A DNA stretch of 63,973 nucleotides, the filler included, from an uncultured bacterium (GTDB lineage: Bacteria > DAOPZR01): NCBI GenBank assembly GCA_964637655.1. It is 4 parts of 4 records of this genome, joined end to end, with 100 filler letters (N's around TTAATTAATTAA, not from the genome) between each part and the next. Parts side by side here need not be neighbours in the genome. Positions count along the whole stretch, not along the records: positions 1 to 16,762 come from CAZWUZ010000042.1; 3 more parts are not named here. One strand, 5' to 3'. The notes under the pieces are model-generated. The model was given only the letters and a program-made list of their open reading frames with translations. It searched no databases and was not told where the DNA came from. Shown here in pieces: positions 1-16,536 of the stretch. The first letter of the stretch is position 1; every line of letters begins with the position of its first letter. A program made the position numbers and the translations under genes.

Positions 1-38
1 CAGCGGCCGGAGCGCTGCATTACGGTGGTCATTGTCAC
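1..38 (-). CDS. Probable 5' end of a gene running off the left edge (product unknown)
   Basis: Minus strand has GGAGGG (51-56), then in-frame GTG(38)/ATG(32)/ATG(20), open to position 1, downstream of a good promoter at 95-123. Confidence 0.35.
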   Translation of the reverse strand, partial: MTMTTVMQRSGR

Positions 39-94
39 GGACCTTGTTGTCCCTCCCTCCGGCGGCGCTGCCGCTGCTGCCGGTCCCATAACCG

Positions 95-123
95 AGTATA
101 GCATCATCACGCAGCAACGTCAA
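95..123 (-). promoter_or_regulatory. Sigma70-type promoter pointing left
   Basis: TTGACG (123-118), 17-bp spacer, TATACT (100-95), with TGn extended -10. Confidence 0.55.
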
Positions 124-144
124 AGCGCATGGCGGCGGTGGCTG

Positions 145-173
145 TTGCCCGGGTCGACAGGTCATGCTATACT
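145..173 (+). promoter_or_regulatory. Sigma70-type promoter for the NHLP precursor gene
   Basis: TTGCCC (145-150), 17-bp spacer, TATACT (168-173), with TGn extended -10. Confidence 0.5.
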
Positions 174-246
174 CGCAGAAAGAGTTGCCGGTCGGCAGCG
201 GCATGCGCGATGCCCGGCAGCCACGTGTGGCAGAGGAGCGACGGAT

Positions 247-807
247 ATGGCATGCAACAGAAGCAACGGGTTTCTCAAACAGGTCGTCAGCAAACCGGAA
301 CTGCGGGCGCAGTTGCTCGCCAACCCCGCGGCAACCCTGAAGGCCAACGGGATTACCGTTCCTGACGGGGCGAAGGTCGTCATTCATGATGTGCCGCCCG
401 GTCAGCCCCACCTGATCCTTCCGGAAAAACTCGACCAGTGGGATGCGTGCTGCGGCGCCACTGAAGTGACGGCCGTGGTCAAGGCGGTTTTCGCTGATCC
501 CGCGTTACGCACGCAACTGTTTGCCGCACCCGGCGCGGTTTTTGCCGCCGTGCTCGGCAAGGAATTCCCCCCCGCCGGCAAAATGCTGGTCTTTGCCAAT
601 ACCGCCAGCGAATTTCATCTCGTCATTCCTGTCGCCGGCAAGGAACTGAGCGATGCCGAACTGGCCGCTGTTGCCGGTGGCAGCCTCCCGGGCGGTGCCG
701 CCATGGACGCGGTATGCGGAATCCTGTGGCATACCCGCATCGGCTGCAATCCGCTCTGCTGCGATATCTGCAATATTTTCGACTGCATCCACCACGCCAC
801 CGGCTGA
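247..807 (+). CDS. NHLP-leader RiPP precursor with two tandem leader domains and a Cys-rich core
   Basis: ATG 247 preceded by GAGGAG. Two copies of the NHLP pattern (PELRAQLLANP...HLILP; PALRTQLFAAP...HLVIP), then ELSDAELAAVAGG double-glycine motif and a 41-aa core with 6 Cys. Confidence 0.8.
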   Translation: MACNRSNGFLKQVVSKPELRAQLLANPAATLKANGITVPDGAKVVIHDVPPGQPHLILPEKLDQWDACCGATEVTAVVKAVFADPALRTQLFAAPGAVFAAVLGKEFPPAGKMLVFANTASEFHLVIPVAGKELSDAELAAVAGGSLPGGAAMDAVCGILWHTRIGCNPLCCDICNIFDCIHHATG

Positions 808-837
808 CGGTGACATTGCCCCACAGAGGTAGCGCGC

Positions 838-867
838 ACGGCCGGCCCGTCGTTCCGGGCCGGCCGT
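838..867. terminator. Hairpin between convergent genes, probable terminator
   Basis: Perfect 12-bp stem ACGGCCGGCCCG / CGGGCCGGCCGT with 6-nt loop; short T-run follows on +. Confidence 0.55.
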
Positions 868-920
868 CGCTTTGTCTGCTCCCTGCAGGCAGTCATGACG
901 GCGAATTTCGCGCGCCGGCG

Positions 921-2087
921 TTAGCACCTCGGCGCCGGCGCCAGCGCGCGCAGGATGCAGATGACCGTGCTTTTCCCCGTGGCGACCACCGCCGTGCCCG
1001 CCGCCGCGCGCCTGACGGCAAACGACCACGCATAATCGTCGCTGCTGAAGCCGGCACGGGCGAGATACGCCTGCAGTTCCGTCTGCGCCTGCAGCCACGC
1101 CTGCTGCTGCGCGCGGCTGGCCAGTAACGGCGCCGTATCGCCCGGGTTGAGCGTTGCGGTCCAGACGACGGGAATGGTGAAGGTGTTATGGAACAGGTCG
1201 CCGGGGCGGCGCGGGGCGGTGCGGGTGAGCGCATCGCGCCAGTCGATATCAGCGTCGGGATACCGGCGGCTGAGCTGGTTGGCTAAGCGGGTATCGCCCG
1301 GGCGCTGCCCGGCGGGATGGAAGGCATACCAGTAGTCCGCCTCGGCGCGCGAACTGCGCACGATAACGCCGTTATAGGTTTCTGCATCGAACAGCACGAA
1401 TTGCCGGCTGGAATACAACGCCGGCATAGCCGACACACTGCGGAACAGACGCCCGAACTGCACGAGAAATTCAGTATTGTTGCCTACGGCACACCCGTGT
1501 ACCTGCAGCACACGCTGCGCATCGACATGCGTGTCGGAGAGCGGGGCCACACTGCCGGCAGCGACTGCTTCAGCCAGCAGCGCGGCATCGGTCTGCTGCG
1601 GCCAGCCGGTGTCGACGGGGACACCGATACCTGTCCATTCATTGCCATGCGCGACAAAGTTGATAATCCCCCACGGCTGCCCGTCGCGCGGACGGTTGGC
1701 AGACAGCCAGTCATGCGCCGCGCGCAGCGTCTGGCAGTCAGTAATCACGTACTCGGTCTTCTGCTGCCGGTCGGTGCGGTAGTAGTGCGCGGCCCGCTCG
1801 TAGTAGCGGTTGCTGCCGTGGTCTGCGCCGAGAATGAACGTCACGCCGGTGCGCGGGACGGCAACAACAGGCGGCGGTGGCGGCGCTGGTCGCGGCGGCT
1901 GCGGACGCGGGGCGCGGGGGAGCAGCAGGGCGATGACGCTGACCGCCACGCACAGCAAAACGAGCGGCGCCAGCCAGGGCCGGCGCCGCTCACGGATGAA
2001 TTCTGCGTGCGCCCGCGGTGCCACCGACCGTTCAAGGTCAGCGGCGGAAATATCAGGTCGCGGGTCCTGCGGTACAACGTCTTTCAC
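921..2087 (-). CDS. Membrane-anchored hypothetical protein with possible caspase-like (clan CD) His/Cys motifs
   Basis: 388-aa ORF: N-terminal TM helix, Pro-rich linker, motifs IINFVAHG and VLQVHGC; starts 21 bp after the VIT gene stop. Confidence 0.6.
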   Translation of the reverse strand: MKDVVPQDPRPDISAADLERSVAPRAHAEFIRERRRPWLAPLVLLCVAVSVIALLLPRAPRPQPPRPAPPPPPVVAVPRTGVTFILGADHGSNRYYERAAHYYRTDRQQKTEYVITDCQTLRAAHDWLSANRPRDGQPWGIINFVAHGNEWTGIGVPVDTGWPQQTDAALLAEAVAAGSVAPLSDTHVDAQRVLQVHGCAVGNNTEFLVQFGRLFRSVSAMPALYSSRQFVLFDAETYNGVIVRSSRAEADYWYAFHPAGQRPGDTRLANQLSRRYPDADIDWRDALTRTAPRRPGDLFHNTFTIPVVWTATLNPGDTAPLLASRAQQQAWLQAQTELQAYLARAGFSSDDYAWSFAVRRAAAGTAVVATGKSTVICILRALAPAPRC

Positions 2088-2108
2088 TGCGTCCCCCCTG
2101 CGGGGATA

Positions 2109-4481
2109 CTACCATACGGCGAGCGTCAACTGCACGGTGGCCGGCCGGCGCAGCGTCAGCCCGTCAAACTTCCAGCCGGATATCGCCTGCAGCAGTTGCT
2201 GCGTGGTGGCCGCATCGAGCGCCGATTCGATGAGGTTCGCGGCGGTCACTTTGCCGTCCGTGCCGATCACCAGCGTCACCTTCACCTGCTGTCCGTCGCC
2301 GCTGATGGCGGCCGGCTGCGCCGGGAGCAGCTGCTGCAGTGCGGCAACAAAGCGTGCCTGCAGACGCGGCAGCGAAATCGAAGGGTTGTCGACGGTCAGC
2401 GCGACGATGCTGATGGAATCCGCCAGCGGTCCGGCCGGCGGCGGCACGGCGATATCCGCTGTCTCGTCTTTCAGCGCTTCACTGACCGGGGCGGGTGCCA
2501 TGGCGTTCGTGCGCAGTGCCTGCGGCGACAGATAAACCGGGCGTGACGGTGCGCCGCCGTAGAATGACGGGGCCGCGGCACCGACCGCGGTATTCTCCAC
2601 CCCTTCGGGCAGCGGCAACGCCTGCTGCACCGTGACGAGTTCGCCGTTCTCGTTGCGCCGCACGATGCTGTCGATGGCGACAAACGAGGTGTACTGCGTC
2701 ATCAGGTTGTACTGCAGCCCGAGCGCCGTCACTTCCTGCTTGAGTTCCGCGCGCGCCTCCGCCCGGTTGTAGTCGTCAAGAATGGCGATGCGCTGGCGGG
2801 CCCAGAGGTAGCGCAGCGCGCTGTTATCCGTGCGCGGGCGGTACTCGCTCAGGCGCAGGCGTTCGCTGAACGCGCCGTGTCCCGAGGTGCCGGTGACCAC
2901 CGCCTCGCCCTTCACTTCGCCCCGCCACTTGCCGAAAACGACCAGCGGGCGCTGCGCGAGCACGTCGGGGATGGAGACCGGTTCGATGTCGTAGGCGTCG
3001 AACCCGGGGAACGTGACGCTGATGCCGGTGAGCACCGGCGACTCGATGTAGCGGCGGAACGTATCCGCATGCGCCGCAGCATCCTCACGCCGCGTGATGA
3101 CGAACGGCTCGCCCTGCCCCATGCGGGCGATGCCCTCGATGATGTAGCGGTTGACCCCGCTGCCGATACCGAAGGCGTACATGTTCGCCTTGCCGAGATT
3201 GTTACGAATGAGGTCGAACGCCTCGCGTTCCACCGAGACGTAGCCGTCCGTCACGATAACGACGTTGCGTGACATCCCGTCGGGGCGCGGCAGCGCCAGC
3301 GCGCGCTTGAGCGCGGGGAGCAGTTCCGTCCCCCCGCGTCCATGCTCGTTGTCGATGGCATTGATGGCACGCGCGATGTTCTCCTCCGTCACCGGCAGCG
3401 ACTGCTCCGCCAGCACGGTATTGCCGCCCGAGAAGAGCATGACGTTGAAACGGTCCTGCGGGCGCAGCCCGGTGAGCAGGTCGCGCATCAGCTGCTTGCT
3501 GATGTTCAGCGGGAAGCCGTGCATCGAGCCCGACACGTCGACAATAAAGACGTACTCGCGCGCGGGAATCTGCGCCGGTGTCACACGCGCCGGGGGCTGC
3601 ACCATCATCAGGAAGAAGTTTTCCGTGTCACCCTGCCAGAGCAGCATGCCCGACTGGATGGCGTCACCCGCCAGGCGGTACCTCAGCACATAGTCGCGGT
3701 TGCCGCCGTTGCCGCCGGCCGGGTCGAGCGCGACTTCCGCGCTGTTCAGGTCGTTGTGCGTGGTGATGAGTTTGTGGCTCGGGCTGCTGATGTCGCGGAT
3801 GGGCATCCCGGCCGCGATGGAGGTCTTGAGGTCGAATGCATATGGCGCCTGCGCACCCTGCTGCAGGTAGGGGGACGCGGTGAACTGTTCTGTGGCCGGG
3901 GCGCCGGCGGCCGGGGTGGTGGTGTAGCGCGGCCCGACCACGGCGGGATAGACGAATTCATAGGTGCCGTCCGTAGGGACGAGCAGTTCGGTGTACTTGA
4001 GTTCAACGACGATTTCGTCATTGGGCTGGATATTGGCGACATTCATGGTGAAGACGTTGGGACGTTCCTGTTCGAGCAGCGAGGCGGTGCGCCCTTCGCG
4101 GCGCGCCTGCTCGTATTCCTGCCGCGCCTGTTCCCGTTCGCGGATCTTCGCGACAAGCACGCGCTCGCCGATGGTCATGGTCATCCCGTAGACCGCGGCG
4201 CGGGTGGAACCCGGAAAGACATAGACGGCTTCGAGGGTGCGGCTGCCCGTGTTGCGGTAGACCTGTCTGACCGTAACGTCAGCGATGACCCCGCTGATGC
4301 GCACGGTGGCGGAGGTCGACTTGAGCGGCAGCTGGTCGACGCCCGGGCTGTCGCTCTTGACAAAGAAATACGGCGACAACGTGCGGTCAGCATCGTTTTC
4401 CGCCGCTTTGGCGACCGACACAACGCACAGCAGCACAGCGAGCATAAGAGCGATGCCTGTCAGGATGTTACGGTAGTTCAT
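2109..4481 (-). CDS. VIT + von Willebrand A domain protein (inter-alpha-trypsin inhibitor-like) with TonB-C-like C-terminal domain
   Basis: Signal peptide (MNYRNIL...AKA), VIT motif (LPLKST...EAVYVFP), MIDAS DVSGSM, VTDG, C-terminal VTLVIGTDGKV...GWKF. Start 4481 chosen for GAGGGG RBS. Confidence 0.88.
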   Translation of the reverse strand: MNYRNILTGIALMLAVLLCVVSVAKAAENDADRTLSPYFFVKSDSPGVDQLPLKSTSATVRISGVIADVTVRQVYRNTGSRTLEAVYVFPGSTRAAVYGMTMTIGERVLVAKIREREQARQEYEQARREGRTASLLEQERPNVFTMNVANIQPNDEIVVELKYTELLVPTDGTYEFVYPAVVGPRYTTTPAAGAPATEQFTASPYLQQGAQAPYAFDLKTSIAAGMPIRDISSPSHKLITTHNDLNSAEVALDPAGGNGGNRDYVLRYRLAGDAIQSGMLLWQGDTENFFLMMVQPPARVTPAQIPAREYVFIVDVSGSMHGFPLNISKQLMRDLLTGLRPQDRFNVMLFSGGNTVLAEQSLPVTEENIARAINAIDNEHGRGGTELLPALKRALALPRPDGMSRNVVIVTDGYVSVEREAFDLIRNNLGKANMYAFGIGSGVNRYIIEGIARMGQGEPFVITRREDAAAHADTFRRYIESPVLTGISVTFPGFDAYDIEPVSIPDVLAQRPLVVFGKWRGEVKGEAVVTGTSGHGAFSERLRLSEYRPRTDNSALRYLWARQRIAILDDYNRAEARAELKQEVTALGLQYNLMTQYTSFVAIDSIVRRNENGELVTVQQALPLPEGVENTAVGAAAPSFYGGAPSRPVYLSPQALRTNAMAPAPVSEALKDETADIAVPPPAGPLADSISIVALTVDNPSISLPRLQARFVAALQQLLPAQPAAISGDGQQVKVTLVIGTDGKVTAANLIESALDAATTQQLLQAISGWKFDGLTLRRPATVQLTLAVW

Positions 4482-4616
4482 TGTCCCCTCCGCGGGCGGT
4501 TGCGGCATTTCCCGAATGCCGTTATGGTAGCATAGACAGGCGTGACGCGCTGCCGGTTGCAACAACTCATGTCATTCTCACCCGCGGCATGGTATACTGA
4601 AAACGGAGGTTTGACC

Positions 4617-5426
4617 ATGCGCTTGATCCTGCTGTGTGCTCTTCTGCTGCTCACCGGCTGTGCCAATCCCTACCGTGCCAACTACGTCAGCACCTTTGAT
4701 CGCTGGCCGGGTGCGGCCGGGCTGTTTGACACCGCGGCCGCACCCGCACCGCCGAAACTCGTGGCGGCGACCGACATGCAGCAGGACGCGCTGGCACTGC
4801 TCGAGAGCGGCTACCTGATGATCGGACGTGCGACCTTCCGCAGCGCGCGCATCGACGAACGTCAGGCGCTGGCGCTGGCACAGGAAGTCGGGGCCGACCT
4901 GGTGCTCGCCAGCCAGGAGTACATGAACACCGTCACGCAGAGTATCCCGATGACGCAATGGCTGCCGGAGCGGCGCTACACCACCACTGAGCGGGTCAGT
5001 TACCAGCCGCATCCCGATTCCACGCCGCTGATCAGCGAGCGCACGATCACCCAGACCATCCAGGGCGAGGCGTATGTCGAATACGTGCCGCAGACCACCG
5101 ACTACTACCAGTATGCCGCCACTTTCTGGAGGAAGGCGAAGCCAATGCATTTCGGCGTGCTCGTGCAGCGGCTCGATGAGGCGACCCGTCAGCGTTTGCA
5201 GACCAATCGCGGGGTCATCGTCAAGGCGGTGGTCAGCCGCACCCCGGCGTTCGACGCTGATATCCTGCGCGGTGACATCATCACGCAGTTCAACGGCCGC
5301 CCGGTGGCCGACCCGCAGGACTTCTTCGCGCAGGTGCGCGCCCATGCCGGGCAGCGCGTAACGGTGCGCCTCGTCCGCGGCAGCAGCACGCTCGACGTAC
5401 CCCTGACACTGCAACGCGGCGACTGA
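4617..5426 (+). CDS. Lipoprotein with C-terminal PDZ domain
   Basis: GGAGG RBS, lipobox LLLTGC, C-terminal GVIVKAVVSRTPAFDADILRGDIITQFNG PDZ pattern. Confidence 0.8.
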   Translation: MRLILLCALLLLTGCANPYRANYVSTFDRWPGAAGLFDTAAAPAPPKLVAATDMQQDALALLESGYLMIGRATFRSARIDERQALALAQEVGADLVLASQEYMNTVTQSIPMTQWLPERRYTTTERVSYQPHPDSTPLISERTITQTIQGEAYVEYVPQTTDYYQYAATFWRKAKPMHFGVLVQRLDEATRQRLQTNRGVIVKAVVSRTPAFDADILRGDIITQFNGRPVADPQDFFAQVRAHAGQRVTVRLVRGSSTLDVPLTLQRGD

Positions 5427-6986
5427 TTACTCCCGGCGCAGCCGCGCTTCCGCGCGCTGCAGTCGCGCATGGTAGTCGCCCGTGTCGAGAAAACCCGTCA
5501 GCTTGCGGATGAGCAGCCAGCCGCCGAACCCGCGGATATTGTTGCGCCAGGCGCGATACCAGCGGTGCCAGTGCGCGCGGATGTTGATGAGCGGCAGGAA
5601 GGCGATGGGGAAATAGAGCGTGCGCAGCCCGACCAGCAGCAGATGGTGGAAGTGGTAGAACCGCTTGAGCAGGCGCAGCACCCCGTCGAGCTGCTCGGTC
5701 GCGGTCACCGGTGCGTCCGGCATGAAGAGCGGAAAATTCCCGTCGTAAAAATCCCAGCCGAGTTCGTCGAGCGGATACAGCCGGCCCTGCGCCGCCAGCC
5801 GCGCCCGCAGCGCCGTGCCGGGCAGCGGTACAGGATTGAGCACCTGCAGCGTGTCGAGTCGCGCGACGCGGATGAATTTTTCGTAGGCGCACATCTGCCG
5901 GTCGAGATGCAGTCCTGACTCCTGCCCCGGGTGTGCGGGATAGCCGAGGATGAACATGCCGTGCACGAGGAAGCCCGCTTCGCGGTAGGCGCGGGTGTAG
6001 GCGAGCATGTCGGCGGCGCGGATATGCTTGCCGATGGTCTTGAGCACCTCGTCGTCGACCGATTCGTAGCCGATGGCGACGGTGAGCACGCCCGCCTCGC
6101 GCATCGCCTGCAGCAGTTCCGTATCACGCGCCGTATCGAGCCGCACCTGGATGGAGATGTCGAGCCGCTTGCCCACCGCCTTCTGCCATTGCGCCGCGAG
6201 GCGGCAGAACGCCAGCGTCCCCGCGCGCTCCTGCCCGAAATGGTCGTCGACAACGAAGAAACTGTGCCAGCCGTGCTGCTCCACCACGCGGATGATGCTG
6301 TTGAGCAGGCGTTCCGGTTTTGCCCAGCGCGGCTTGCCCTTGATGGCGCAGAACTCGCAGTCCATGCCGCAACCGCGGATGCGGCTGATGGGGTAAACCG
6401 CCACCTTCGCATAGCGCAGCAGGTTGAAATCGGGATAGGGGAGCGCATCGAGGTCGGCGATCGGGGGGCGGTCGGGCGTGCAGACCTCGCGCCCGTCCTG
6501 CCGGTACGAGATGCCGCTGATGGCGGAGAAGTCACGCCCGCCCTCCGCCGCGCGCAGAATCTCCTGCATGGCGTATTCCCCCTCGCCATGCACCACGATA
6601 TCGACACCGTTGGCGAGTCCTTCGTCCGCCTGCCCGAGGAAATGGTGCCCGCCCGCGACGGTGAGTACCCCCTGCTCCTGATACCAGCGTGCCAGTTCGT
6701 AGAGGCGCGGCACCCCGCAGGTCAGACCGCCGTAGAACCCGACCGCCGCCGCCGGGCGCGCCAGCTGCAGGAACGCATGGTCAGGTGCGCCATGCGCATC
6801 GTGCGGGCCGGGAAAACGGTAATTGTTTTCGTCGATGACCTCGACCTCCCAGCCGGGCAGCTGCGCGGCGGCCGTCGCCACGCTGAGCGGGCCGAGCGCC
6901 GTGGTCTTGCGCGCGATATGCGAGTAGACGTTGAACCCGGGGAGCTTCGGCAGAATCATGCGGAACAAACGCGGCGTGTCACTCAT
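5427..6986 (-). CDS. B12-binding domain radical SAM protein
   Basis: CxxxCxxC (CGMDCEFC), N-terminal cobalamin-binding pattern (VAGGHH...VVHGEGE), IGYES and GMFILG motifs. Start 6986 has GAGG RBS. Confidence 0.88.
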   Translation of the reverse strand: MSDTPRLFRMILPKLPGFNVYSHIARKTTALGPLSVATAAAQLPGWEVEVIDENNYRFPGPHDAHGAPDHAFLQLARPAAAVGFYGGLTCGVPRLYELARWYQEQGVLTVAGGHHFLGQADEGLANGVDIVVHGEGEYAMQEILRAAEGGRDFSAISGISYRQDGREVCTPDRPPIADLDALPYPDFNLLRYAKVAVYPISRIRGCGMDCEFCAIKGKPRWAKPERLLNSIIRVVEQHGWHSFFVVDDHFGQERAGTLAFCRLAAQWQKAVGKRLDISIQVRLDTARDTELLQAMREAGVLTVAIGYESVDDEVLKTIGKHIRAADMLAYTRAYREAGFLVHGMFILGYPAHPGQESGLHLDRQMCAYEKFIRVARLDTLQVLNPVPLPGTALRARLAAQGRLYPLDELGWDFYDGNFPLFMPDAPVTATEQLDGVLRLLKRFYHFHHLLLVGLRTLYFPIAFLPLINIRAHWHRWYRAWRNNIRGFGGWLLIRKLTGFLDTGDYHARLQRAEARLRRE

Positions 6987-7101
6987 ACTGGTCACCTCAG
7001 TAACAGTATAGCACAAAGCAGCCGATGCGCCTGCATTTTTGTGCCGCCTATGCTACACTCACCATCCAGCGGGTAACCGCGGTACGGGCCGGGGACGGAA
7101 C

Positions 7102-8184
7102 ATGCTCACGCTCACGAAGTTGCGCAAGGAGTACAACGGGACGGTCGCGGTCGACGATGTCGATCTGACGGTCAACAAGGGCGAGTTCTTCTGCCTGCTC
7201 GGGCCGAGCGGCTGCGGCAAGACGACCATCCTGCGCATGGTCGCCGGGTTCGAACTCCCCACCGCGGGGAGCATCGCGCTGGCCGGCCGCGAAATAACCG
7301 GCCTGCCCCCCTACGCGCGCGATGTCAATACCGTCTTCCAGAACTATGCCCTGTTTCCCAACTATACCGTGCGCGGCAATATCGCCTATGGCCCGCAGCT
7401 GAAAAAGCTCACCGCGGCGGAAATCGACCGGCGGGTGGACGAGGCGATGGCGCTGGTCGGGCTGCAGGACCTCGGGGCACGCCTGCCGTCGCAACTGTCG
7501 GGCGGGCAGCAGCAGCGGGTGGCGCTGGCGCGCGCGCTGGTCAACCGCCCGTCGCTGCTGCTGCTCGACGAGCCGCTCTCCGCGCTCGACAAGCAGATCG
7601 CCGAACACACGCGGCTCGAACTGAAAGACCTGCAGAAACGGCTCGGCATCACCTTCGTCTTTGTCACCCATAACCAGGTCGAGGCGATGACCATGTCCGA
7701 CCGCATCGCGGTCATGCACCGCGGGCGCATCGAGCAGTGCGCGTCCCCGACGGAGATCTACAGCCGCCCGGCCACCCCGTTCGTCGCCGGGTTTATCGGC
7801 ACGATGAACTTCTTCCCCGCCACCGTCACCGCCACGGCAGACGGCAGCACCTCCCTGCGCCTGTTTGACCGCAGCGAGGCGCAGTACCGCGAGGGCACCC
7901 CCTTCCCTGCGGGGACGACGGTGCGTTACGGGGTGCGCCCCGAACAGCTGCGCGTGTCGCTGCTCCCGCCGAAGGACTTCGAGAACGGGCTGCACGGCAC
8001 CATCACGCGCCAGGTCTTCATGGGTGAAACGACGCAATTCGTCATCACGCTCGACGGCGGCGCCACGGTCGAAGTCAATGTGCTCAACTACCTCATTGTC
8101 GCGGAAAAGCCGCTCGGCTTCGAGCTGCAGGAGGAAGTGCACCTCATCTGGAGCAAGTCGTCCGGAGTGCTGCTCCATGGCTGA
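7102..8184 (+). CDS. potA: Spermidine/putrescine ABC transporter ATP-binding protein
   Basis: Walker [36 protein letters not shown]-like tail; followed by permeases. Confidence 0.9.
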
Positions 8185-9046
8185 GGCAACCTCCGCCCGC
8201 TTCACCCGCCTGCTGCTCCTCCCGCCGGCGGTCTGGCTGGGGCTCTGTTTCGGGCTGCCGCTGATTATCGTGCTGCTCTACAGCGTCGGGCATACCCATA
8301 CCTATGGCGGAGTCAGTTTCGGTCTTACCTTCGAACATTATCGCGCGGTCGCCGACCCCTTCTACGGCGGCATTTTCCTGCGCTCACTCGGGTACAGCGT
8401 GGGGATCACGCTGTTCACGCTGGTGCTGGCACTGCCGCTGGCCTATGTCATGGCCTGCGCCACGCCCCGCTGGCAGAAACTGATGATGTTCTGCATCATC
8501 GTCCCTTTCTGGACCAATTTTCTCGTGCGCATGTTCGCCTTCGTCACCCTGCTCGGTGACAGCGGGCTGATCAATACGCTGCTGCTGCGCCTCGGGCTGA
8601 TCAGCGCACCGCTCCCGCTGCTCCATTCGCTCTTCGCGGTCATCGTCGGTTTCGTCTACTGGAACCTGACCTACATGGTGCTGCCGATTTATGCTGCGCT
8701 CGAACGCATGGACGTGGCGCATGTCGAGGCGGCGATGGATCTCGGGGCGGGCCGGTTCACCGCCTTCCGTACCGTCACTCTTCCCGCCGCAATCCCCGGC
8801 ATCATTGCCGGGGTCATCTTCACCTTCATCCCCACCCTCGGCTGTTTTGTCATTCCTGAAATACTCGGCGGGCAGGACAACCAGATGATCGGCAACGTGA
8901 TCGTCACCCAGTTCCTGCAGGCGCGCAACTGGCCGCTCGGGTCCGCCTTCGCCATGCTCTTCGTTGCGCTGGTCATGCTGCTCATCTCGCTGACCATCCG
9001 CTACTATACACCTGCGACCGAAACGAAGCGCGGAAACGTCATCTGA
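8177..9046 (+). CDS. potB: Spermidine/putrescine ABC transporter permease
   Basis: PFWTNFLVR, EAAMDLGA loop, ARNWPLGSA; ATG 8177 overlaps the potA end. Confidence 0.88.
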   Translation: MAEATSARFTRLLLLPPAVWLGLCFGLPLIIVLLYSVGHTHTYGGVSFGLTFEHYRAVADPFYGGIFLRSLGYSVGITLFTLVLALPLAYVMACATPRWQKLMMFCIIVPFWTNFLVRMFAFVTLLGDSGLINTLLLRLGLISAPLPLLHSLFAVIVGFVYWNLTYMVLPIYAALERMDVAHVEAAMDLGAGRFTAFRTVTLPAAIPGIIAGVIFTFIPTLGCFVIPEILGGQDNQMIGNVIVTQFLQARNWPLGSAFAMLFVALVMLLISLTIRYYTPATETKRGNVI

Positions 9047-9048
9047 CA

Positions 9049-9217
9049 TGGCCAGTAACCTCTCGCGCAGCAACGGGCTGGGCATCGGCCGCGGCGGCTG
9101 GTGCCCGCGCCACTCTTCCAGCATAGGGCGCAGCGGCCGCTGCCCGCACCACACCGGAGCACCACGCTGTGGCCAGTAACCTCTCGCGCAGCAACGGACT
9201 GGGCATCGGCCGCGGCG
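9049..9217 (+). repeat. 48-bp direct repeat (9049-9096 and 9170-9217, 1 mismatch) duplicating the 5' end of potC
   Basis: TGGCCAGTAACCTCTCGCGCAGCAACGG(G/A)CTGGGCATCGGCCGCGGCG occurs twice, 121 bp apart. Confidence 0.9.
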
Positions 9218-11025
9218 CGCCGACCCTGTCGGTGGCAGCGGCATCCATCGTCTTCCTGCTCGTCCCGCTTGGCGTGCTGATCTTCTACTCGTTCAATACG
9301 GGGAAAGTCATCAACCAGTGGGCGGGCTTCTCGCTGCACTGGTATAGCGATGTGTTGCGCGACCGGGCGCTGCTCTTCTCCGTGCGCAACTCACTCACGG
9401 TTGCCTTCTTCAGCACCATTATCGCCACCGTGCTCGGCACAATGATCGCGCTGGCCATCGGCAGCATGCGCGGGCGCAACGCGAAGCTGTTCTACAACCT
9501 GCTCTATGTCCCGGTCATCCTCCCGGAAATCATTTTCGGGGTGGCCCTGCTCGCACTCTTCGTGCTCATCGGTTTTCCGCTCGGGCTGACCACGGTCTGC
9601 ATTGCCCACGTCACCTTCACCCTGCCCTTTGTCGCGCTCATCGTCATCGCGCGCGTGCAGACGCTCGATCCCGCCCTCTCCGAAGCGAGCATGGACCTCG
9701 GGGCTACCCGCTGGCAGACCCTGCGCCTGGTCATTCTCCCCGCGCTCGCGCCCGCCATTGTCGCCGGCGCCCTCTTCGCCTTCACCGGCAGTATCGACGA
9801 CCTCGTCGCCACCTTCTTCACCGCCGGGGTCGGGGCCTCGACCATGCCGCTGCGGATTTACGCGCTGCTCAAAACCGAGATGACGCCGTTGCTCAACGCC
9901 CTCTCGACCATGCTGATCATCCTCACCGTGGCGGCGGTAAGCGCGGCCTCCCTGCTGCAGGGGACGGGAAGGACGCGCCGCACCGGCGCGGTGCTCGCCG
10001 CGCTGCTGGTCATGGGGGTGCTGCTGCTCTTCGCCTTTACCGGCACGACCATCGACCGCGACCGCGTGGTGCATATCTGGAGCTGGTCAAACTATATCGC
10101 GCCGGACGTTATTGCCGCGTTCGAGCGCGAACACGACATGACCGTCACCTACGATTTCCTCAATGACAACGAGGAGATGCTCGCCAAACTGCAGTCGGGC
10201 GCGGGCGGATACGACATCATCATCCCCTCCGGCTACATGGTCGAGATTCTCAAGCGGGAGAACCTCATCCGGCCCATCGGCAACGTGCCGAACCGCGCCC
10301 TGCTCGACACTGCCTTTACCAACCTCGAGTATGATACCAGCGGCCGCTACTACATCCCCTACACCTACGGCTGCTCGGGCTACGGGTACGACACGCGGGT
10401 CATCACCACGCGCCCTGACACGCTCGGCATCATGTGGGACGAACGCCACCGCGGGCGCCTGCTGATGCTCGACGACCCGTTCGAGACCCTCTTTGCCGGC
10501 TATGTCCGGCTCGGGCTCGACTGGACGCTGCGGCGCCCCGCCGACCTGGCTGCCGCCGTCGCCGAACTGCGCCGGCAGAAGCCGCTGCTCAAGAAGTACG
10601 ACTCCAATTTCTACAAGGAGATGCTGGCCGCCGGCGAGGTCGATATCGTCCACTGCTGGAACGGCACGATTTACAAGCTGCGGCGCGAGCAGGGAGCTGA
10701 CGCGCATGTTGATTTCTTCGTGCCGCAGGAGGGCGCGCTCTTCTTTAACGATAATTTTGCCATTCCGCGCGACGCGCAGCATCCGGAGAACGCCGAACAG
10801 TTCATCAATTTCATGCTGCGCCCCGACATGACCGCGCGCAATATCACCGTCACCGGCTATGCCATGCCCAACCCCGCTGCCATCGCCCTGCTGCCGCCCG
10901 AGGTGGCGGATAACCCGTACATCTTCGTGCCGCGCGAACAGCTCGACCGCTGCCGCCTGCTCCCTGATTTCGGCGAGTTCAATCACCAGATGCTCGAGGC
11001 ATGGACGCGACTCAAGGCCGAGTAG
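9169..11025 (+). CDS. potC: Fused polyamine ABC permease (PotC) and substrate-binding protein (PotD)
   Basis: N-half PotC (GFSLHWY, EASMDLGA, SIDD); C-half PotD (WSNYI, YDIIIPSGYMV, PQEGA..FNDNFAIP); one 618-aa frame with GTG start and GGAG RBS. Confidence 0.87.
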   Translation: MASNLSRSNGLGIGRGAPTLSVAAASIVFLLVPLGVLIFYSFNTGKVINQWAGFSLHWYSDVLRDRALLFSVRNSLTVAFFSTIIATVLGTMIALAIGSMRGRNAKLFYNLLYVPVILPEIIFGVALLALFVLIGFPLGLTTVCIAHVTFTLPFVALIVIARVQTLDPALSEASMDLGATRWQTLRLVILPALAPAIVAGALFAFTGSIDDLVATFFTAGVGASTMPLRIYALLKTEMTPLLNALSTMLIILTVAAVSAASLLQGTGRTRRTGAVLAALLVMGVLLLFAFTGTTIDRDRVVHIWSWSNYIAPDVIAAFEREHDMTVTYDFLNDNEEMLAKLQSGAGGYDIIIPSGYMVEILKRENLIRPIGNVPNRALLDTAFTNLEYDTSGRYYIPYTYGCSGYGYDTRVITTRPDTLGIMWDERHRGRLLMLDDPFETLFAGYVRLGLDWTLRRPADLAAAVAELRRQKPLLKKYDSNFYKEMLAAGEVDIVHCWNGTIYKLRREQGADAHVDFFVPQEGALFFNDNFAIPRDAQHPENAEQFINFMLRPDMTARNITVTGYAMPNPAAIALLPPEVADNPYIFVPREQLDRCRLLPDFGEFNHQMLEAWTRLKAE

Positions 11026-11999
11026 GGCGTCGCGTTGCCGCCCTCGCCGGCGGCGGGTTGCTGACTGCGCTGCTGCTTGTGCACCTGCTGCACCACGTGC
11101 TGCCCGGCAACTTCACCTTTGCCGCGCTGACCAATTTCCGCCTGCAGTTCGGTGTGCTGGCACTGCTGGCGTCAGTGCTGCTGCTTGTTGCGCGACCGCA
11201 AAAGCTGATGGTGCTCACCCTGCTGCCCGCCCTCTGGTGGCTGGGCGGGGTTGGTCTGTATTACCTTCCTGCCGGCACGCCGGCGCTGGCCGCCCCCGCG
11301 GCGCAGCCATTGAAACTGCTGTACGCCAATGTCAACACCGCCAACCGCGACCATGCCGCGCTGCTGCGCCTCATAGCGGCGGAGCAGCCCGATATCATCG
11401 GCCTGCTGGAAACCGACGAGGTGTGGCGTGACGCATTGCTGCCGCTGCACGACACCTGGCCGCAGCAGGTGGCGGAATACCGCAGCGACAACTTCGGGCT
11501 GGTGCTCCTCTCGCGCCTGCCGCTGGCCGAAAGCGATATCCTGCACGCGCCGGAGACCGGGCTCGGTACTGTCCGCGCGGTCGTTGCCCTGGACGACCGG
11601 TCACTGACCTGCTACCTCACCCATCCGCTGCCGCCATCGCACGACCGCCAGCTGCAATGGCGCGATGATCAGCTGCGCTGGCTGGCGACGCAGGCCGCCT
11701 CCACGCCGGGCGAAATCATCGTCATGGGTGATTTCAATGCCACAGACGGGACCGGCATCCTGCAGGAATTTGCCGCCCTGTCAGGGCTGCGTGACACGCG
11801 CCACGGTTTCGGCTGGCAGCCGACCTGGCCCGACTACCAGGCCGAGGCAAAAGCGCTGCCGCTCGCCCCGCTCTGGCCGTGGCTGCTGCGCATCCCGCTC
11901 GACCATGTCTTTGTCTCGCCAACTCTGACGGTCCGCGACCGCCGCGTCGGGTCGCCCATCGGCAGCGACCACCGTCCTGTCCTTGTCACATTGCTCTGA
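11001..11999 (+). CDS. Endonuclease/exonuclease/phosphatase (EEP) family membrane protein
   Basis: Three N-terminal TM segments; YANV, PDIIGLLE, MGDFNA, LDHVF, GSDHRP motifs. Confidence 0.85.
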   Translation: MDATQGRVGRRVAALAGGGLLTALLLVHLLHHVLPGNFTFAALTNFRLQFGVLALLASVLLLVARPQKLMVLTLLPALWWLGGVGLYYLPAGTPALAAPAAQPLKLLYANVNTANRDHAALLRLIAAEQPDIIGLLETDEVWRDALLPLHDTWPQQVAEYRSDNFGLVLLSRLPLAESDILHAPETGLGTVRAVVALDDRSLTCYLTHPLPPSHDRQLQWRDDQLRWLATQAASTPGEIIVMGDFNATDGTGILQEFAALSGLRDTRHGFGWQPTWPDYQAEAKALPLAPLWPWLLRIPLDHVFVSPTLTVRDRRVGSPIGSDHRPVLVTLL

Positions 12000-12029
12000 A
12001 CATGCACCCTGCCACACGCTGGTGGGTTA

Positions 12030-12058
12030 TTGACGACGCCCGGCGCGAATGCTACGAT
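12030..12058 (+). promoter_or_regulatory. Sigma70-type promoter
   Basis: TTGACG, 17-bp spacer, TACGAT with TGn extension, upstream of the 12146 ORF. Confidence 0.45.
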
Positions 12059-12145
12059 GCAACACCAGTGCGGGAGCGCGATACGGTGGCGCAGTGCGTT
12101 ATGCCTTACGCGTTGCCCGGCGCACAGCATGAGGAATGACCTGCC

Positions 12146-12817
12146 ATGACCCACGCCCGAAGAGGTAAGACAGCGTCCGTTGTTGCAGTCATCAGGGAAC
12201 TGCCCGCGCTCGCCCTGCTGTGCGTCCTCAGCACAGCGTTTTCGTGCTCCGGAGCATTCGCTTCGAAACCTGATATCATCAATCCGATATTGCAGGTGGC
12301 AATTTGCACCGGCGTTGCTGAAGGCAACAGCGACATATTGTTCCAGGTGATGGTCTATAATCATGAGCGGTATGAAAACTACCATCTCAGGTACCAGTAC
12401 CTGTGTGAACGTTTCGGCTGCGAAAGAATTGCTGAACTTTTCGGTTTCTTTCCGAAGTTTTCCATCCTGCGCGGCGATAGCGATATTGCTCAAGCCGGCC
12501 GCGATTTCGCCCGTGAGCACCCCGCCCATGCGGCGAAGCAGCTGCTGGCACCATGGTCACCCGATGTGGGCTGGCATGCTGACTTTCCCACTGATGCCGC
12601 CTGTGCCCTGCTGCGTGCTGCCGGACCGGAGTATGCCCCGCTGGTGGACGCCCTGCGCCAGCAAGTTTCCCAATTACCGCCTCCGTCTCCGTACATGGAC
12701 ACGTCTGACGGCACGCCTCCGGAAAGGCCCCCCGCCTGGGTGCTGCCGGCAGCTGTCGCCAGCGCGGTTGTCCTGCTTGTTCTCTGTTTTGTCGCCTGGC
12801 GCATCATCCGTCACTGA
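12146..12817 (+). CDS. Hypothetical exported protein with C-terminal membrane anchor
   Basis: GAGGA RBS, signal-like N-terminus, Pro-rich linker, C-terminal hydrophobic helix followed by WRIIRH. Confidence 0.55.
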   Translation: MTHARRGKTASVVAVIRELPALALLCVLSTAFSCSGAFASKPDIINPILQVAICTGVAEGNSDILFQVMVYNHERYENYHLRYQYLCERFGCERIAELFGFFPKFSILRGDSDIAQAGRDFAREHPAHAAKQLLAPWSPDVGWHADFPTDAACALLRAAGPEYAPLVDALRQQVSQLPPPSPYMDTSDGTPPERPPAWVLPAAVASAVVLLVLCFVAWRIIRH

Positions 12818-12969
12818 CCGGAACATGCATGGGGACAATCCCCGTTTCCATGGTACAGCTGCGCTGGCTTCGGCAGTGACCACCGTCATCTCCTGCTCAC
12901 CCTGCAGTAGAGAGCAGCGTGTCGGCCGTCAGGCGTGCAAATCCGCGATTATTGAGGTAAACTCGTGCC

Positions 12970-13548
12970 GTGAACGATAACCATCTGAGTCCTTTTCCCG
13001 ATGTGCGGTTTGCCGGCAGCGTGCGCTTCACCCTGCGCCTGGGCGCGTTGCACACCTTCGGGGCTGACGCTGTTTTCTGCGCCGCCCCGCCTGATCTGAC
13101 GCCGGCAGGAGCAATGCGCCACGCGCTGCTGCAGGCCGCCGGCGAAGGACCCTACGAGGAATGCCGGTTTTATGCCGGGATAAAACAGATGTCACCGGGT
13201 ACCGCGCTGCTCACCGCCGCGGGCCGCCTGCAGGCGCGCCATCTGTTGCACCTCGTGCTCCCCGACTGGCAGGCGGGAAGCGCAGAAGCGTTGCGCCGCT
13301 ATACGGCTGCCCTGCGCGTGGCGTTTGCTCTCGCGCACAAGCACAGCGCGCGCAGCATTGTCATGCCGCTGCTGGGGACGGAGCTGAACAGCTGGCCGGC
13401 GGAGCATGCCATGAGCGCAATGCTCGAAGCGGTTTTCACCGCGCTGGAACTGCACCCGGCGGCCTTCGACAGTTTCACCTGGGCGCTACGCGACAGCAGC
13501 GAGCAGGCTGCCGCCCGCGCGGTTTTCGCACAGCTCGACCGGTCCTGA
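12970..13548 (+). CDS. Macro domain protein (divergent)
   Basis: GADAVFCAA, PGTALLTAAGRLQARHLLHLVLP, SIVMPLLGT match the macro-fold pattern. Confidence 0.72.
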   Translation: MNDNHLSPFPDVRFAGSVRFTLRLGALHTFGADAVFCAAPPDLTPAGAMRHALLQAAGEGPYEECRFYAGIKQMSPGTALLTAAGRLQARHLLHLVLPDWQAGSAEALRRYTAALRVAFALAHKHSARSIVMPLLGTELNSWPAEHAMSAMLEAVFTALELHPAAFDSFTWALRDSSEQAAARAVFAQLDRS

Positions 13549-14364
13549 TTACCCGCGGTCGAGCGCCGCGCGCATCTCCTGCCGTTTGGTCATCGTCACC
13601 GCATGGGTTTCGTCAAAGACTGCCGGCAGGCCGCGGCGCAGCACCTGCACGCCCTGTTCGGTGATGCCCCCCTTCGTTGCCACGCGCTCGATGGCCTGCG
13701 CAAAGGTCAGCCGCTTCTCGATAAGCAGGCGCGCCAGCCCGCGCAGCGTGACATTGAGCATCAGTTCCGCCTCCTGCGGGTCAAGATCACTGATGCGCAA
13801 CGCGGCTTGCAGGTACTCGTCGGCAATCGCGGCCAGCAGGCCGGGGGCGCAACTTGTCAGGTTGGAACAGATGGACATGTGCCGTTCCGCGACCACCGCC
13901 ACCGTGGCGATGCTCCCGAGCAGCCGCTCGCACTCCTGCCGCTGCGCGGCGCTGACCGGGCCGGTGTGACAGAGCAGGGCGATGCCGTCGCGCACCTCGG
14001 AGGTGACACTGGGGATGCACTTGGAGTTGGCGCCGGCGCGGAGGCCCGCCAGGTAGTCGAGGGTCACCCCGGCTGCCAGCGAAACAAGATGTGTTTCAGC
14101 GCGCAGTGCGGGGAGGAGTGCCCCGAGCACGGGCCTGACCTCCATCGGCTTGACGCAGAGGAACAGGATATCCGCTGCTGCCGCCACCGCGGCATTGTCA
14201 GCGGCAACGGTTGCCCCCGGTACCTCCGCGGCGGCGCGGTCGCGTGAGGCCGCTGACCGCGATGAAATATGCAGCTGCTCCGCCTTGCAGGCGCCGGCAG
14301 CGACGAACCCGCGCGCCAGCATCCCCCCCATGCTCCCGTAGCCGATAATGCCGATGGTGTTCAT
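13549..14364 (-). CDS. proC: Pyrroline-5-carboxylate reductase family protein (ProC/ComER-like)
   Basis: IGIIGYGSMG, FLCVKP, SLAAG, VATKGGIT. Confidence 0.78.
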   Translation of the reverse strand: MNTIGIIGYGSMGGMLARGFVAAGACKAEQLHISSRSAASRDRAAAEVPGATVAADNAAVAAAADILFLCVKPMEVRPVLGALLPALRAETHLVSLAAGVTLDYLAGLRAGANSKCIPSVTSEVRDGIALLCHTGPVSAAQRQECERLLGSIATVAVVAERHMSICSNLTSCAPGLLAAIADEYLQAALRISDLDPQEAELMLNVTLRGLARLLIEKRLTFAQAIERVATKGGITEQGVQVLRRGLPAVFDETHAVTMTKRQEMRAALDRG

Positions 14365-15488
14365 GCCTGCCCTCCCGTGAGTTCACCCAGTGTCGCGATG
14401 AAGGTGTCTATGTCCTGCCGGTTGTTGTAGAAGTTCACCGCGACGCGCAGGCCGCGTTTGCGCACGGAAACGAGAATGCCGCGTGCAGCCAGCGCCACCG
14501 CAACCTGTTCCTTATCCGGCACATCGACGATGGTGATGCCCGCGCGCTCATGTGCTGCCCGCGGCGAGACGATGCGCCAGCCGCCCGCGTCGAGCTGCGC
14601 CCGCAGGTATTCGGTCAGCTCGTCGATGCGCGTGGCGATGTTCACTATGCCGAGGCGTTCCACCAGTTCTACCGTGGCACCGAACGCGAAGATATTCGGG
14701 AACGATGGTCCACCCCCTTCCAGCGCCACCGCCCCCGTCTTGAAATCGGTGCTGCGGTTGTCCATGGCCGGCGGGTGCTTGACGCTCATCCAGCTGGCGG
14801 CGGGAAGCGTGGTGCCGTCGAGCAGGCCCGGGCGCAGGTAGAGCAGTCCGATGCCGTAGCCGGACAGTCCCCACTTGTTGCACGAACAGACGAGGCAGTC
14901 GAGGTTGAGCGCCTGCACGTCGAGCGGCAGCGCGCAGATGCTCTGCGAGGCATCGACCACGAGCATGACCCCGCGCGCGCGGCACATGCGGGCGCAGGCG
15001 GCGATATCCTGGCGGAACCCGGTGGCGTACTGCACCGTGCTGACCACCGCGGTTTTTACTGCCGGCGTGAGCGCCGCGGCAAAACGCTCCGGGGTGATGC
15101 GGCACTGTGCATCACCAGCAAGGAAATCGACCTGGTCCCCGCAGTTGAGGAACGGGATGGTAGCGGTGGGGAAATCGTCGTCCATGGCCAGCACCGCGCC
15201 CGTTCCCTGCCGCCACTGCGCGATGAGGTTCATCGCGTGCGAGGTGTTCTGCACGAAGGCGAGCGCGGCCGGGTCGGCATTGAGGAAGCGCGCTACGCGG
15301 GCACGCGTCTCCTCCACCCGCCGCAGCCAGTCGTGCCACGGCCGGTCCCCGTCGCTGAGCGACTCGTCGTAGTAGCGCACCGCGGCATCACGCGTCGCGC
15401 GCGCCATGGGCCCGCCCCCCGCGGTGCTCAGGTAAGTATACTTCTGCAGCGCGGGGAACTCCGCCCGCACCGCCTCCCAGTCGGTCAT
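14361..15488 (-). CDS. Class V aminotransferase / cysteine desulfurase-like PLP enzyme
   Basis: VRAEFP..YLSTA, NTSHA, VVDASQ, SCNKW (PLP lysine), LRVAVNFYN. Confidence 0.85.
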   Translation of the reverse strand: MTDWEAVRAEFPALQKYTYLSTAGGGPMARATRDAAVRYYDESLSDGDRPWHDWLRRVEETRARVARFLNADPAALAFVQNTSHAMNLIAQWRQGTGAVLAMDDDFPTATIPFLNCGDQVDFLAGDAQCRITPERFAAALTPAVKTAVVSTVQYATGFRQDIAACARMCRARGVMLVVDASQSICALPLDVQALNLDCLVCSCNKWGLSGYGIGLLYLRPGLLDGTTLPAASWMSVKHPPAMDNRSTDFKTGAVALEGGGPSFPNIFAFGATVELVERLGIVNIATRIDELTEYLRAQLDAGGWRIVSPRAAHERAGITIVDVPDKEQVAVALAARGILVSVRKRGLRVAVNFYNNRQDIDTFIATLGELTGGQA

Positions 15489-15500
15489 CCCGCCCTCCGG

Positions 15501-15532
15501 CAAACAAAAAGGGCCGCCGGTAAGGGCGGCCC
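15501..15532 (-). terminator. Rho-independent terminator after the cysteine-synthase-family gene
   Basis: Stem GGGCCGCC / GGCGGCCC, 6-nt loop, followed by TTTTTGTTTG on the minus strand. Confidence 0.7.
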
Positions 15533-15558
15533 GGAAACAGCGTGCACCATGACGGCAA

Positions 15559-16536
15559 CTACGTGACGTAGCGCTCCTCGGTGAGGTAGCGGTTCATGTG
15601 GTCGCAGAGCAGCGTGACGATGCGCAGCTTCTTCCCGTTGGCCTTCTTCGCCTCTTCCAGCGCGTAGTGGACATTGGCGCCTGACGAAATACCGCAGTAA
15701 AGCCCTTCCTCACGCCAGATACGGTGCGCCATCTCGCGCGCTTCGCTGTCGCTCGTCTGCACCAGGACATCGATAAGCCGCTCGGCCTTGAGCATCTTCG
15801 TGACGATGCCCCCCTTGATCTCGGTCGCGGGGAAATCCATGCCGGGGTGCCAGAGTTCCTTGGAACTGGCGGGCTGGATGCCGATGACCTTGACGCCGGG
15901 AATCTCCTTCTTGAGCACCTGGGCGATGCCGACGAGCGAGCCGGCGGTGCCGATCGACTGCACGAAGACGTCGATCTTGCCGTCGGTCTGCTCGAGGATC
16001 TCCTGCGCGGTCACGTGGTGCGACTTGACGTTGTCCTCGTTGCTGAACTGCCGCGCCCACCAGATCTTGTCGGGATTGGCCTGCTCATCGTTGTAGCAGA
16101 GCTGGCGGCCGGGGAGCTCGACCTCGGAACCCGCGATGCTGCGCTCGCGCAGCGCCTCGATGTCATCGGGCTCCATCAGGCGGACTTCCGCCCCGACATT
16201 CTCCATCATCTTCTTCTTTTCCGAGCCGGCCTTGCCGGGCATGGTCTCGTAGATGCAGACGTTGTAGCCCTTCATGCGGCCGACGGACGACAGGGCGAAC
16301 CCGGTGTTCCCCGTGCTCGACTCGATGAGCGTGTAGCCGGGCTTGATGCGCCCCGCCTTCTCCGCCCCCTCGATCATGGCGAGAGCAATGCGGTCCTTGA
16401 GCGAGCCCGACGGGTTCATGTATTCGAGCTTGACGAGGATTTCGCAGCCCGTCCCCTGCGGGATACTGTTCAGCCGGACCATCGGCGTATCACCGATCAG
16501 TTCCAGCATGCTGTTGTAGATCTGCTTGTGACGCAT
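15559..16536 (-). CDS. PLP-dependent cysteine synthase / cystathionine beta-synthase family protein
   Basis: IGDTPMVRL, KLEYMNPSGSLKDRIA, SSTGNTG, QFSN, GISSGAN. Confidence 0.87.
   Translation of the reverse strand: MRHKQIYNSMLELIGDTPMVRLNSIPQGTGCEILVKLEYMNPSGSLKDRIALAMIEGAEKAGRIKPGYTLIESSTGNTGFALSSVGRMKGYNVCIYETMPGKAGSEKKKMMENVGAEVRLMEPDDIEALRERSIAGSEVELPGRQLCYNDEQANPDKIWWARQFSNEDNVKSHHVTAQEILEQTDGKIDVFVQSIGTAGSLVGIAQVLKKEIPGVKVIGIQPASSKELWHPGMDFPATEIKGGIVTKMLKAERLIDVLVQTSDSEAREMAHRIWREEGLYCGISSGANVHYALEEAKKANGKKLRIVTLLCDHMNRYLTEERYVT

Follow-up and report, generated by a model that had tools for sequence, protein, structure and literature searches.

The gene at positions 247-807 (+) of the window raises the question of what becomes of a short, cysteine-rich peptide that carries a doubled leader and has no recognised modifying enzyme beside it. 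The window is the whole analysed stretch of DNA, 63,973 nt in length, from an uncultured bacterium. The gene comprises 186 codons plus a stop, in the location given by the initial annotation. Judged from its sequence, it is a genuine double-glycine precursor of the nitrile hydratase leader peptide (NHLP) family. The precursor would be cut after Gly145 and exported via an NHLP-type system, and its core would be bridged by six cysteines, likely in three disulfides; this course is considered somewhat probable.

The NCBIfam NHLP leader model TIGR03793 matches the 186-aa protein in two stretches (E 5.8e-18, 64.5 bits against a cut-off of 50.9). Each half is matched by itself, residues 1-70 with 31.1 bits (E 1.5e-7) and residues 71-145 with 39.0 bits (E 5.3e-10), so that the two leader units of the initial annotation are confirmed. 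The halves share 27% mutual identity. Unit 1 (residues 9-60, positions 271..426, +) is without cleavage motif. Unit 2 occupies residues 76-129 (positions 472..633, +). Both units are matched by a one-unit hidden Markov model (HMM) built on our own alignment and are seen in the structure model, unit 1 with a predicted local distance difference test score (pLDDT) >90. ELSDAELAAVAGG is present at the end of the second half only, as read earlier. The leader ends in LSDAELAAVAGG (positions 646..681, +), with L-x4-L at -12 to -7, a position taken from the part of PMC10858898 that was available, and with a Gly-Gly cut site (G144, G145). The core peptide SLPGGAAMDAVCGILWHTRIGCNPLCCDICNIFDCIHHATG follows (positions 682..804, +). 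It is 41 aa long and has six Cys (core positions 12, 22, 26, 27, 30, 35), three His, one Trp and three Ser/Thr, the composition reported before.

The doubled leader is common, not rare, on the sequences compared. HMMER over 1.84 billion representatives recovers 344 proteins at E <= 1e-3. Unit counts were made with the one-unit HMM over the best 150 of these: two units in 121, one in 26, three in one, four in one and none in one. The earlier ranking of this locus as the strongest candidate for an undescribed system, by virtue of a special leader, is not supported by these counts. Among the relatives P0026, P0009 and P0127, there is one with four units (311 aa), one with three (230 aa) and one of 1591 aa with 9 matched stretches; the last gives no score with the unit HMM. 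Among 38 aligned two-unit proteins, P27, P95, L139, G144 and G145 are invariant (38/38), L134 and A143 are nearly invariant, and the cleavage motif is confined to the second unit. The cores of the best 150 relatives are unrelated in length and composition, i.e. a variable core follows the leader.

A one-genome-per-species scan with a query of 10 sequences gives 77 loci. The frame was read at 21 of them, yielding 15 two-unit precursors, four single-unit precursors and two that are unreadable (L081 and L082, dropped). The two-unit loci belong to Bryobacterales, Ectothiorhodospiraceae, Nostoc, Microcoleus, Chamaesiphon, Elusimicrobia, Rhodobacteraceae, Rhodospirillaceae, Leptolyngbyaceae and Wallbacteria. 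Neighbourhoods were read by Pfam scans of the ORFs (open reading frames) within 8 kb at 14 loci, L042 being left out and L045 being covered by three ORFs. LanM is found at 10 of the 14 (L034-L037, L039-L041, L043, L045, L079) and is not seen within 8 kb at L038, L046, L075 and L099. The same loci have a radical SAM protein of 640-770 aa (4 loci), Asp/Asn hydroxylases (3), GNATs (4), C39 ABC exporters (6) and additional two-unit paralogues (5). Copies of the large radical SAM protein, at L034, L035, L037 and L099 (Acidobacteriota, Wallbacteria), are 33-87% identical. A doubled leader that docks two enzymes would agree with the loci holding LanM together with the large radical SAM protein, hydroxylases and GNATs. 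No description of a doubled or tandem NHLP leader was found in the main texts of the literature searched. The leaders described in the available parts of PMC2887384, PMC8784127 and PMC10858898 are single-unit, and the available part of PMC12537861 holds no mention of a doubled one. The two-unit leader is widespread yet apparently undescribed, as far as these searches reach.

The model shows the 145-residue leader as a folded copy of the two-repeat body of nitrile hydratase alpha, without the metal site. Built by AlphaFold2 with the 38-protein alignment, it is confident over residues 1-145, with a predicted template modelling score (pTM) of 0.71 and pLDDT >90 over most of residues 11-130; the core is unstructured, with pLDDT below 50. 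Among the Foldseek matches listed, the best 39 are all chains of nitrile hydratase alpha or of thiocyanate hydrolase gamma and span 137-148 columns. Probability is 0.99-1.00 for the first 15 of the list, reaching 1.00 over 138-148 columns, and the template modelling (TM) score is ~0.4. In VIA-align, 35 such entries give Z 5.9-7.5 over 117-135 residues (root-mean-square deviation 4.1-4.9 at Z 6.6-7.5), and Z drops to 3.4 at the next, unrelated class of entry. Model residues 1-139 superpose on nitrile hydratase alpha chain residues ~50-190. In the model, the leader thus resembles a single nitrile hydratase alpha body more than a leader dimer. At the profile level, the 38 proteins match solved NHLP leaders via unit 2 only (8tb1_A, E 1.8e-26; 9cjx_A, E 5.4e-20) and nitrile hydratase alpha chains in two stretches per chain (E 1e-17 to 1e-23). 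The enzyme itself has two NHLP-like repeats (1v29_A, residues 64-120 and 139-203). On the precursor, the enzyme's own model TIGR01323 reaches 22.6 bits, the cut-off being 249.85. After unit 1 comes PEKLDQWDACCG, whose Cys are not conserved in relatives, and a metal-binding Cys cluster is absent after the first repeat.

How the doubling arose is less clear. Units pair with the enzyme repeats crosswise or ambiguously at sequence level, and common descent of the doubling is therefore not shown. For 60 of 76 units compared, the nearest neighbour is a unit of the same class. Mean unit identity is 34.8% within one protein, and 29.9% and 32.0% for units of the same class between proteins. Inheritance from the enzyme and re-duplication are both possible origins, and duplication may have been repeated. 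Many precursors, a large class not found in the literature searched, would retain the two halves of the enzyme fold as a protein-like docking module.

The core has no such company. It has no family match in a profile scan. Only P0002 among the 344 proteins has the same core, and an alignment search of 5.8 billion clusters gives a six-Cys family of three sequences. A homologue in a sister genome (G001) is 46% identical over residues 9-179. A word-index homologue search with the protein alone recovers only the protein itself. A metagenome scan finds a single locus, at a contig end among housekeeping genes, which is uninformative. The six-Cys core family is very rare and comes from a barely sampled bacterial lineage; of 40 other genomes searched, G001 alone is in the same taxonomic family as the window's genome. 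All three members have six Cys: C157, C167, C171, C172 and C175 are invariant, and the sixth is shifted by one position. T163 and I165 are likewise invariant, T163 being the sole conserved Ser/Thr column. Core identity is 29-39%, near the leader identity of 34-47%. His counts are 3, 2 and 0 and Trp counts 1, 0 and 1 across the members, so that the label of a His-rich core fits the window sequence and not its relatives, and neither residue is conserved. The second GG (SLPGG), put forward as an alternative cut site, occurs only in the window sequence and is missing from both relatives; that proposal is not upheld. A search of the ESM Atlas with the core gives a best value of 0.77 (a type 2 lantibiotic cluster), under the level that shuffled sequences often reach, and is not used.

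A matching exporter is encoded in the genome, which is an assembly of 485 contigs (3.99 Mb, 90.55% complete, 3.64% contamination). C39 peptidase has one match in the whole genome, on contig C158, in a four-gene operon of TolC, HlyD, ABC1 and ABC2. HlyD gives 269.9 bits with TIGR03794 (cut-off 156.2). ABC1 gives 521.4 bits with TIGR03796 over the first 371 profile positions and is broken by the end of C158. Its remainder is on C35, followed by ABC2 (TIGR03797, 928.6 bits against 709.4). The operon is taken to continue from C158 to C35 because it is intact in G001, where the full-length ABC1 orthologue gives 1069.6 bits against 853.3 (TIGR03796). All four genes are present in both genomes. The TIGR03793 match and the C39 exporter together bear out the earlier assignment to NHLP double-glycine precursors served by a C39-peptidase ABC exporter. 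NHLP family search of the genome gives 7 matches on 5 contigs, and a loose regular expression for Gly-Gly leader ends gives 21 ORFs, ~15 of which are judged plausible precursors. A GNAT gene (Acetyltransf_18 + Acetyltransf_1) lies directly 5' of the exporter TolC gene (C158, L028:4004-4999, +).

The following course is proposed. The precursor gene would be transcribed from its own consensus promoter. The leader end of its product would serve for recognition, and the one ABC exporter of the genome that contains a peptidase would make the cut after Gly145 through its C39 domain. Export would proceed through the TolC-HlyD-ABC1-ABC2 system encoded on C158 and C35, a single exporter presumably shared with ~15 other Gly-Gly-leader peptides of the organism. 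The released 41-residue peptide would be held together through its six conserved cysteines. With three disulfides and no other change, it would be a class II bacteriocin-like or microcin-like peptide.

The locus is cut short on its left. Window positions 1-16762 are contig C42 from its first base, and 246 nt of DNA precede the gene; positions 16763-63973 are outside contig C42, and genes there are not countable as neighbours of the precursor. The five genes downstream encode a protein of 388 aa that falls in no family, a VIT/VWA protein, a PDZ lipoprotein, a B12-radical SAM protein and polyamine ABC transporter components. No recognised enzyme for RiPPs (ribosomal peptides modified after translation) is encoded within 16.7 kb downstream, save the B12-radical SAM gene, which is below curated cut-offs. 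LanM and SPASM genes are both absent from the 16.5 kb downstream on contig C42, with only 246 nt of upstream DNA to search. An immunity gene is not recognisable at the precursor locus. The earlier statement that no maturase adjoins the gene thus holds for the downstream side and is not confirmed as written, the contig edge being so close upstream. In part, the assembly accounts for the apparent absence of a maturase: the contig begins 246 nt upstream and carries a promoter pointing off that end.

The B12-binding radical SAM gene (529 aa, positions 5427-7016, -) was considered as a maturase and rejected. It lies 4.6 kb away and is below all cut-offs, the best match being HpnJ (101.6 bits against 577.6). 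G001 holds a 60%-identical orthologue and 18 weaker paralogue matches; the orthologue is on a different contig from the precursor, and none of the window's other neighbours adjoins it there. A cognate radical SAM epimerase or methyltransferase, as proteusins have, is not seen downstream, with 246 nt of upstream DNA present, the B12-radical SAM gene being sub-threshold and unlinked in G001. The G001 precursor copy lies between a TMEM260-like membrane protein gene and a TolC-like gene, on a 5.8-kb contig without a radical SAM gene. In the window's genome, the orthologues of these two neighbours lie on other contigs and have no precursor next to them. Rebuilding the left flank from G001 synteny failed, as the neighbour orthologues are on other contigs in other contexts. 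The surroundings of the precursor differ between the two genomes that hold it; there is therefore no conserved neighbour, which is counted toward the disulfide-only choice.

Transcription and translation signals are present around the gene. Shine-Dalgarno-like GAGGAG lies 8 nt 5' of the ATG (positions 233..238, +). A sigma-70-like promoter, TTGCCC-17-TATACT with extended -10 TG, lies at 145..173 (+) with 9 of 12 consensus matches. A terminator-like hairpin with a 12-bp stem of 11 G-C pairs, followed by CGCTTTGTCT, lies at 838..867 (+). The promoter and downstream hairpin claimed for the gene are therefore both there as sites, at the level of consensus matches. A second sigma-70-like promoter, TTGACG-17-TATACT with extended -10 TG (positions 95..123, -, 10 of 12 consensus matches), faces left. 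Promoter-like sites number two in positions 1-1100, against 0.1 +/- 0.4 in shuffles. The possible start of a divergent gene running off the contig lies at 1..38 (-), with GTG 38, ATG 32 and ATG 20 in one frame; these candidate starts at 38-20 (-) are preceded by a purine-rich GGAGGGAGGG stretch at 60-51. A divergently transcribed gene off the left end of the contig is thus possible. Together the two extended -10 boxes, mirror images of each other, make up a perfect inverted repeat of 12 nt (93-104 and 164-175, within 93..175). The repeat was considered as a private operator marking co-regulated genes and rejected. The 12-mer occurs 35 times in the genome with up to one mismatch and is, for this reason, probably the organism's general -10 consensus. 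Logan contigs of three public runs reach 464, 260 and 163 nt past position 1. At positions 42, 49 and 64 all three, from one study, carry A, T and T in place of the window's C, G and G. Because of this disagreement, the first 64 bases of contig C42 may belong to a variant or to a contig end of poor quality.

Three disulfides are the first choice for the fate of the core, held with modest confidence from the sequence. An even, conserved number of Cys fits pairing; a single Ser/Thr is conserved and no neighbour is conserved. Several observations count against this choice and against the export route joined to it. LanM neighbours at 10 of 14 loci give a high prior for enzymatic modification of two-unit precursors. 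The T-x-I-x-C pattern formed by the invariant T163, I165 and C167 could be a methyllanthionine ring. SPASM has 33 genome matches, 31 above cut-off; for this reason the organism may be an anaerobe with many radical SAM enzymes that modify peptides, and disulfides would then be less sure. The left-facing promoter at 123-95 mirrors that of the precursor and points off the contig end. The NHLP-type exporter is not adjacent to the precursor in either genome, the link being one of family logic. RNA runs are not listed for the stretch, and four DNA runs of one study carry it as short contigs. A serious alternative to disulfides alone is an enzyme whose gene lies elsewhere or immediately beyond the left end of the contig.

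The form of this alternative that survives best is a radical SAM/SPASM enzyme, encoded off the left end or elsewhere, that builds thioethers on the six Cys and gives a sactipeptide-like or ranthipeptide-like product. It is unlikely on present evidence, at roughly one chance in a handful. The many SPASM matches agree with it, as do the Gly-Gly precursors on contigs C85 and C31 that lie directly beside SPASM enzymes, a precursor-like ORF on C20 near three SPASM matches, and the second promoter, which points toward a gene beyond the left end. The Cys positions are conserved and most other core residues are not, which also speaks for it. Such an enzyme is, however, encoded neither in the 16.5 kb downstream nor, as any radical SAM gene, on the 5.8-kb contig of the G001 copy, and conserved acceptor residues are limited to T163 and I165. 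Heterocycle chemistry, also named earlier, finds no counterpart: the YcaO cyclodehydratase of thiazole/oxazole-modified microcins (PF02624) and the MbnB/TglH-type enzyme of MNIO-modified peptides (DUF692, PF05114) each have 0 matches in the 90.55%-complete genome.

Modification by the genome's single LanM in trans is more doubtful. Thr163 would be dehydrated and joined to Cys167 as methyllanthionine, and the other Cys would be disulfide-bonded. The invariant T163, I165 and C167 suit such a ring, and LanM is the usual neighbour of two-unit precursors at the loci read. Each of the two genomes holding the six-Cys family has exactly one LanM match, that of the window's genome being on contig C31 (TIGR03897, 549.4 bits against 304). 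The leader end ELSDAELAAVAGG is near-identical to that of the LanM-linked Nif11 precursor on C31. This LanM, however, already has an adjacent Nif11-type precursor of its own, and the pair is kept in G001. Its identity to the LanMs adjoining two-unit precursors is no more than 24-28%, against 36-44% among those LanMs themselves across phyla. The core has three Ser/Thr with one conserved column, and a single ring leaves an odd count of free Cys. One conserved Ser/Thr column against six conserved Cys also sustains the initial view that a fully lanthionine-bridged product is unlikely. The other enzymes of the two-unit loci have no close counterpart in the genome: an orthologue of the 640-770-aa radical SAM enzyme is absent (best 25-28% identity), and a search for the hydroxylase and GNAT gives generic 23-28% similarity at most, with no match for the hydroxylase.

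Metal binding is the next possibility, in two forms. The cysteine claw of nitrile hydratase is presumably C-S/T-L-C-S-C, and the core, with its C-x(2,3)-L-C-C-x-x-C cluster, recalls this motif. In the first form, which is very improbable, the cluster would be a displaced claw and the exported 41-mer a metal-binding metallophore or metal-dependent toxin; the product would then be a secreted metal-binding peptide and not a disulfide-knotted bacteriocin. In the second, less probable still, the precursor would escape cleavage and act inside the cell as a small protein resembling nitrile hydratase alpha, binding metal through its C-terminal Cys cluster. The alignment of the entire leader with the nitrile hydratase alpha body is in keeping with it, as is the resemblance of the cluster to the presumed claw. 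It is opposed by the Gly-Gly and L-x4-L, which are invariant family-wide and precede hypervariable cores in relatives, by the matching exporter in the genome, and by the cluster itself, which lies ~45 residues past unit 2, away from the position of the enzyme's metal site, and has no fold in the model.

That the ORF is a chance open frame, of which a G+C-rich window holds many spurious and overlapping ones, can be dismissed in view of the HMM match (E 5.8e-18), the 46%-identical homologue of the same architecture in G001, the 344 relatives, and a ribosome-binding site, promoter and terminator in register.

Other precursors of the same genome were seen in passing. Contig C31 (L117:1325-10159) carries a RiPP island, in which LanM is convergent with a Nif11-leader precursor with core YTFPQTDWIYCDNPWTNVYCTLKC; two Nif11 precursors in tandem have a GNAT gene and a radical SAM/SPASM gene next to them, with a 2631-aa ORF adjoining. 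Contig C85 (L029:7756-9833) carries a tandem pair of single-unit NHLP precursors whose cores are of the TGC... kind; the gene that follows directly is a radical SAM/SPASM gene, with the ACGX-system model as its best match (227 bits, cut-off 400). Contig C312 (3581-4099, -, L030) carries a contig-edge precursor with an NHLP unit, a degenerate second unit and a Gly-Gly site; its core is Gly/Asn-rich, with GGNGG-like repeats.

At this locus alone the significance is modest: one more orphan precursor in an organism with ~15 Gly-Gly-leader peptides and a single exporter. The leader has wider bearing. Structural work treats NHLP leaders as a single folded unit, and the two-unit form dominates the relatives found here, in several phyla. 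It occurs mostly with LanM and often with further tailoring enzymes, and so offers a concrete test of multiple docking surfaces on protein-like leaders.

Among known systems, the NHLP precursors DprE2 (PDB 9cjx) and the MprE7 chimera (PDB 8tb1), with other proteusin- and LanM-type substrates, belong to the same leader family and share the L-x4-L ... GG end. Leaders of the DprE2/MprE7 type have one unit, which aligns to unit 2 here; the window leader has two units, and a cognate enzyme is not seen at its locus. The two-unit LanM-linked precursors L034-L045 (Bryobacterales, Ectothiorhodospiraceae, Microcoleus, Chamaesiphon, Nostoc, Elusimicrobia) have the same architecture at <=38% identity over residues 10-159, with the GG motif on the second unit only. 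Their cores are long and Gly/Ala/Ser-rich with 1-3 Cys, whereas the window core has six. Their clusters contain LanM and often a ~700-aa radical SAM protein, Asp/Asn hydroxylases and GNATs, none of which lies beside the window precursor. Nitrile hydratase alpha (1v29, 1ire, 4zge) and thiocyanate hydrolase gamma share the two-repeat body with the leader, which differs in being without the Cys cluster after the first repeat and without a beta-subunit partner.

All parts of the NHLP bacteriocin export system (TIGR03794, TIGR03796, TIGR03797), with TolC, are in the genome; they lie apart from the precursor and apparently serve precursors at many scattered sites. In class II microcins and other disulfide-bridged bacteriocins with Gly-Gly leaders, the leader is unstructured, ~15-25 residues long and cut by a C39 ABC exporter that works with HlyD and TolC. 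One reading gives the window peptide, like these, a core that bears Cys and is otherwise unmodified; its leader is instead a 145-residue folded domain. The NHLP-Burk pairs (TIGR03795) of Delftia and Acidovorax, as described by Haft et al. 2010 (PMC2887384), are fusions of two whole precursors. These fusions share with the window gene two NHLP-clan modules in one polypeptide; in the window gene, it is the leader that is doubled, ahead of a single core.

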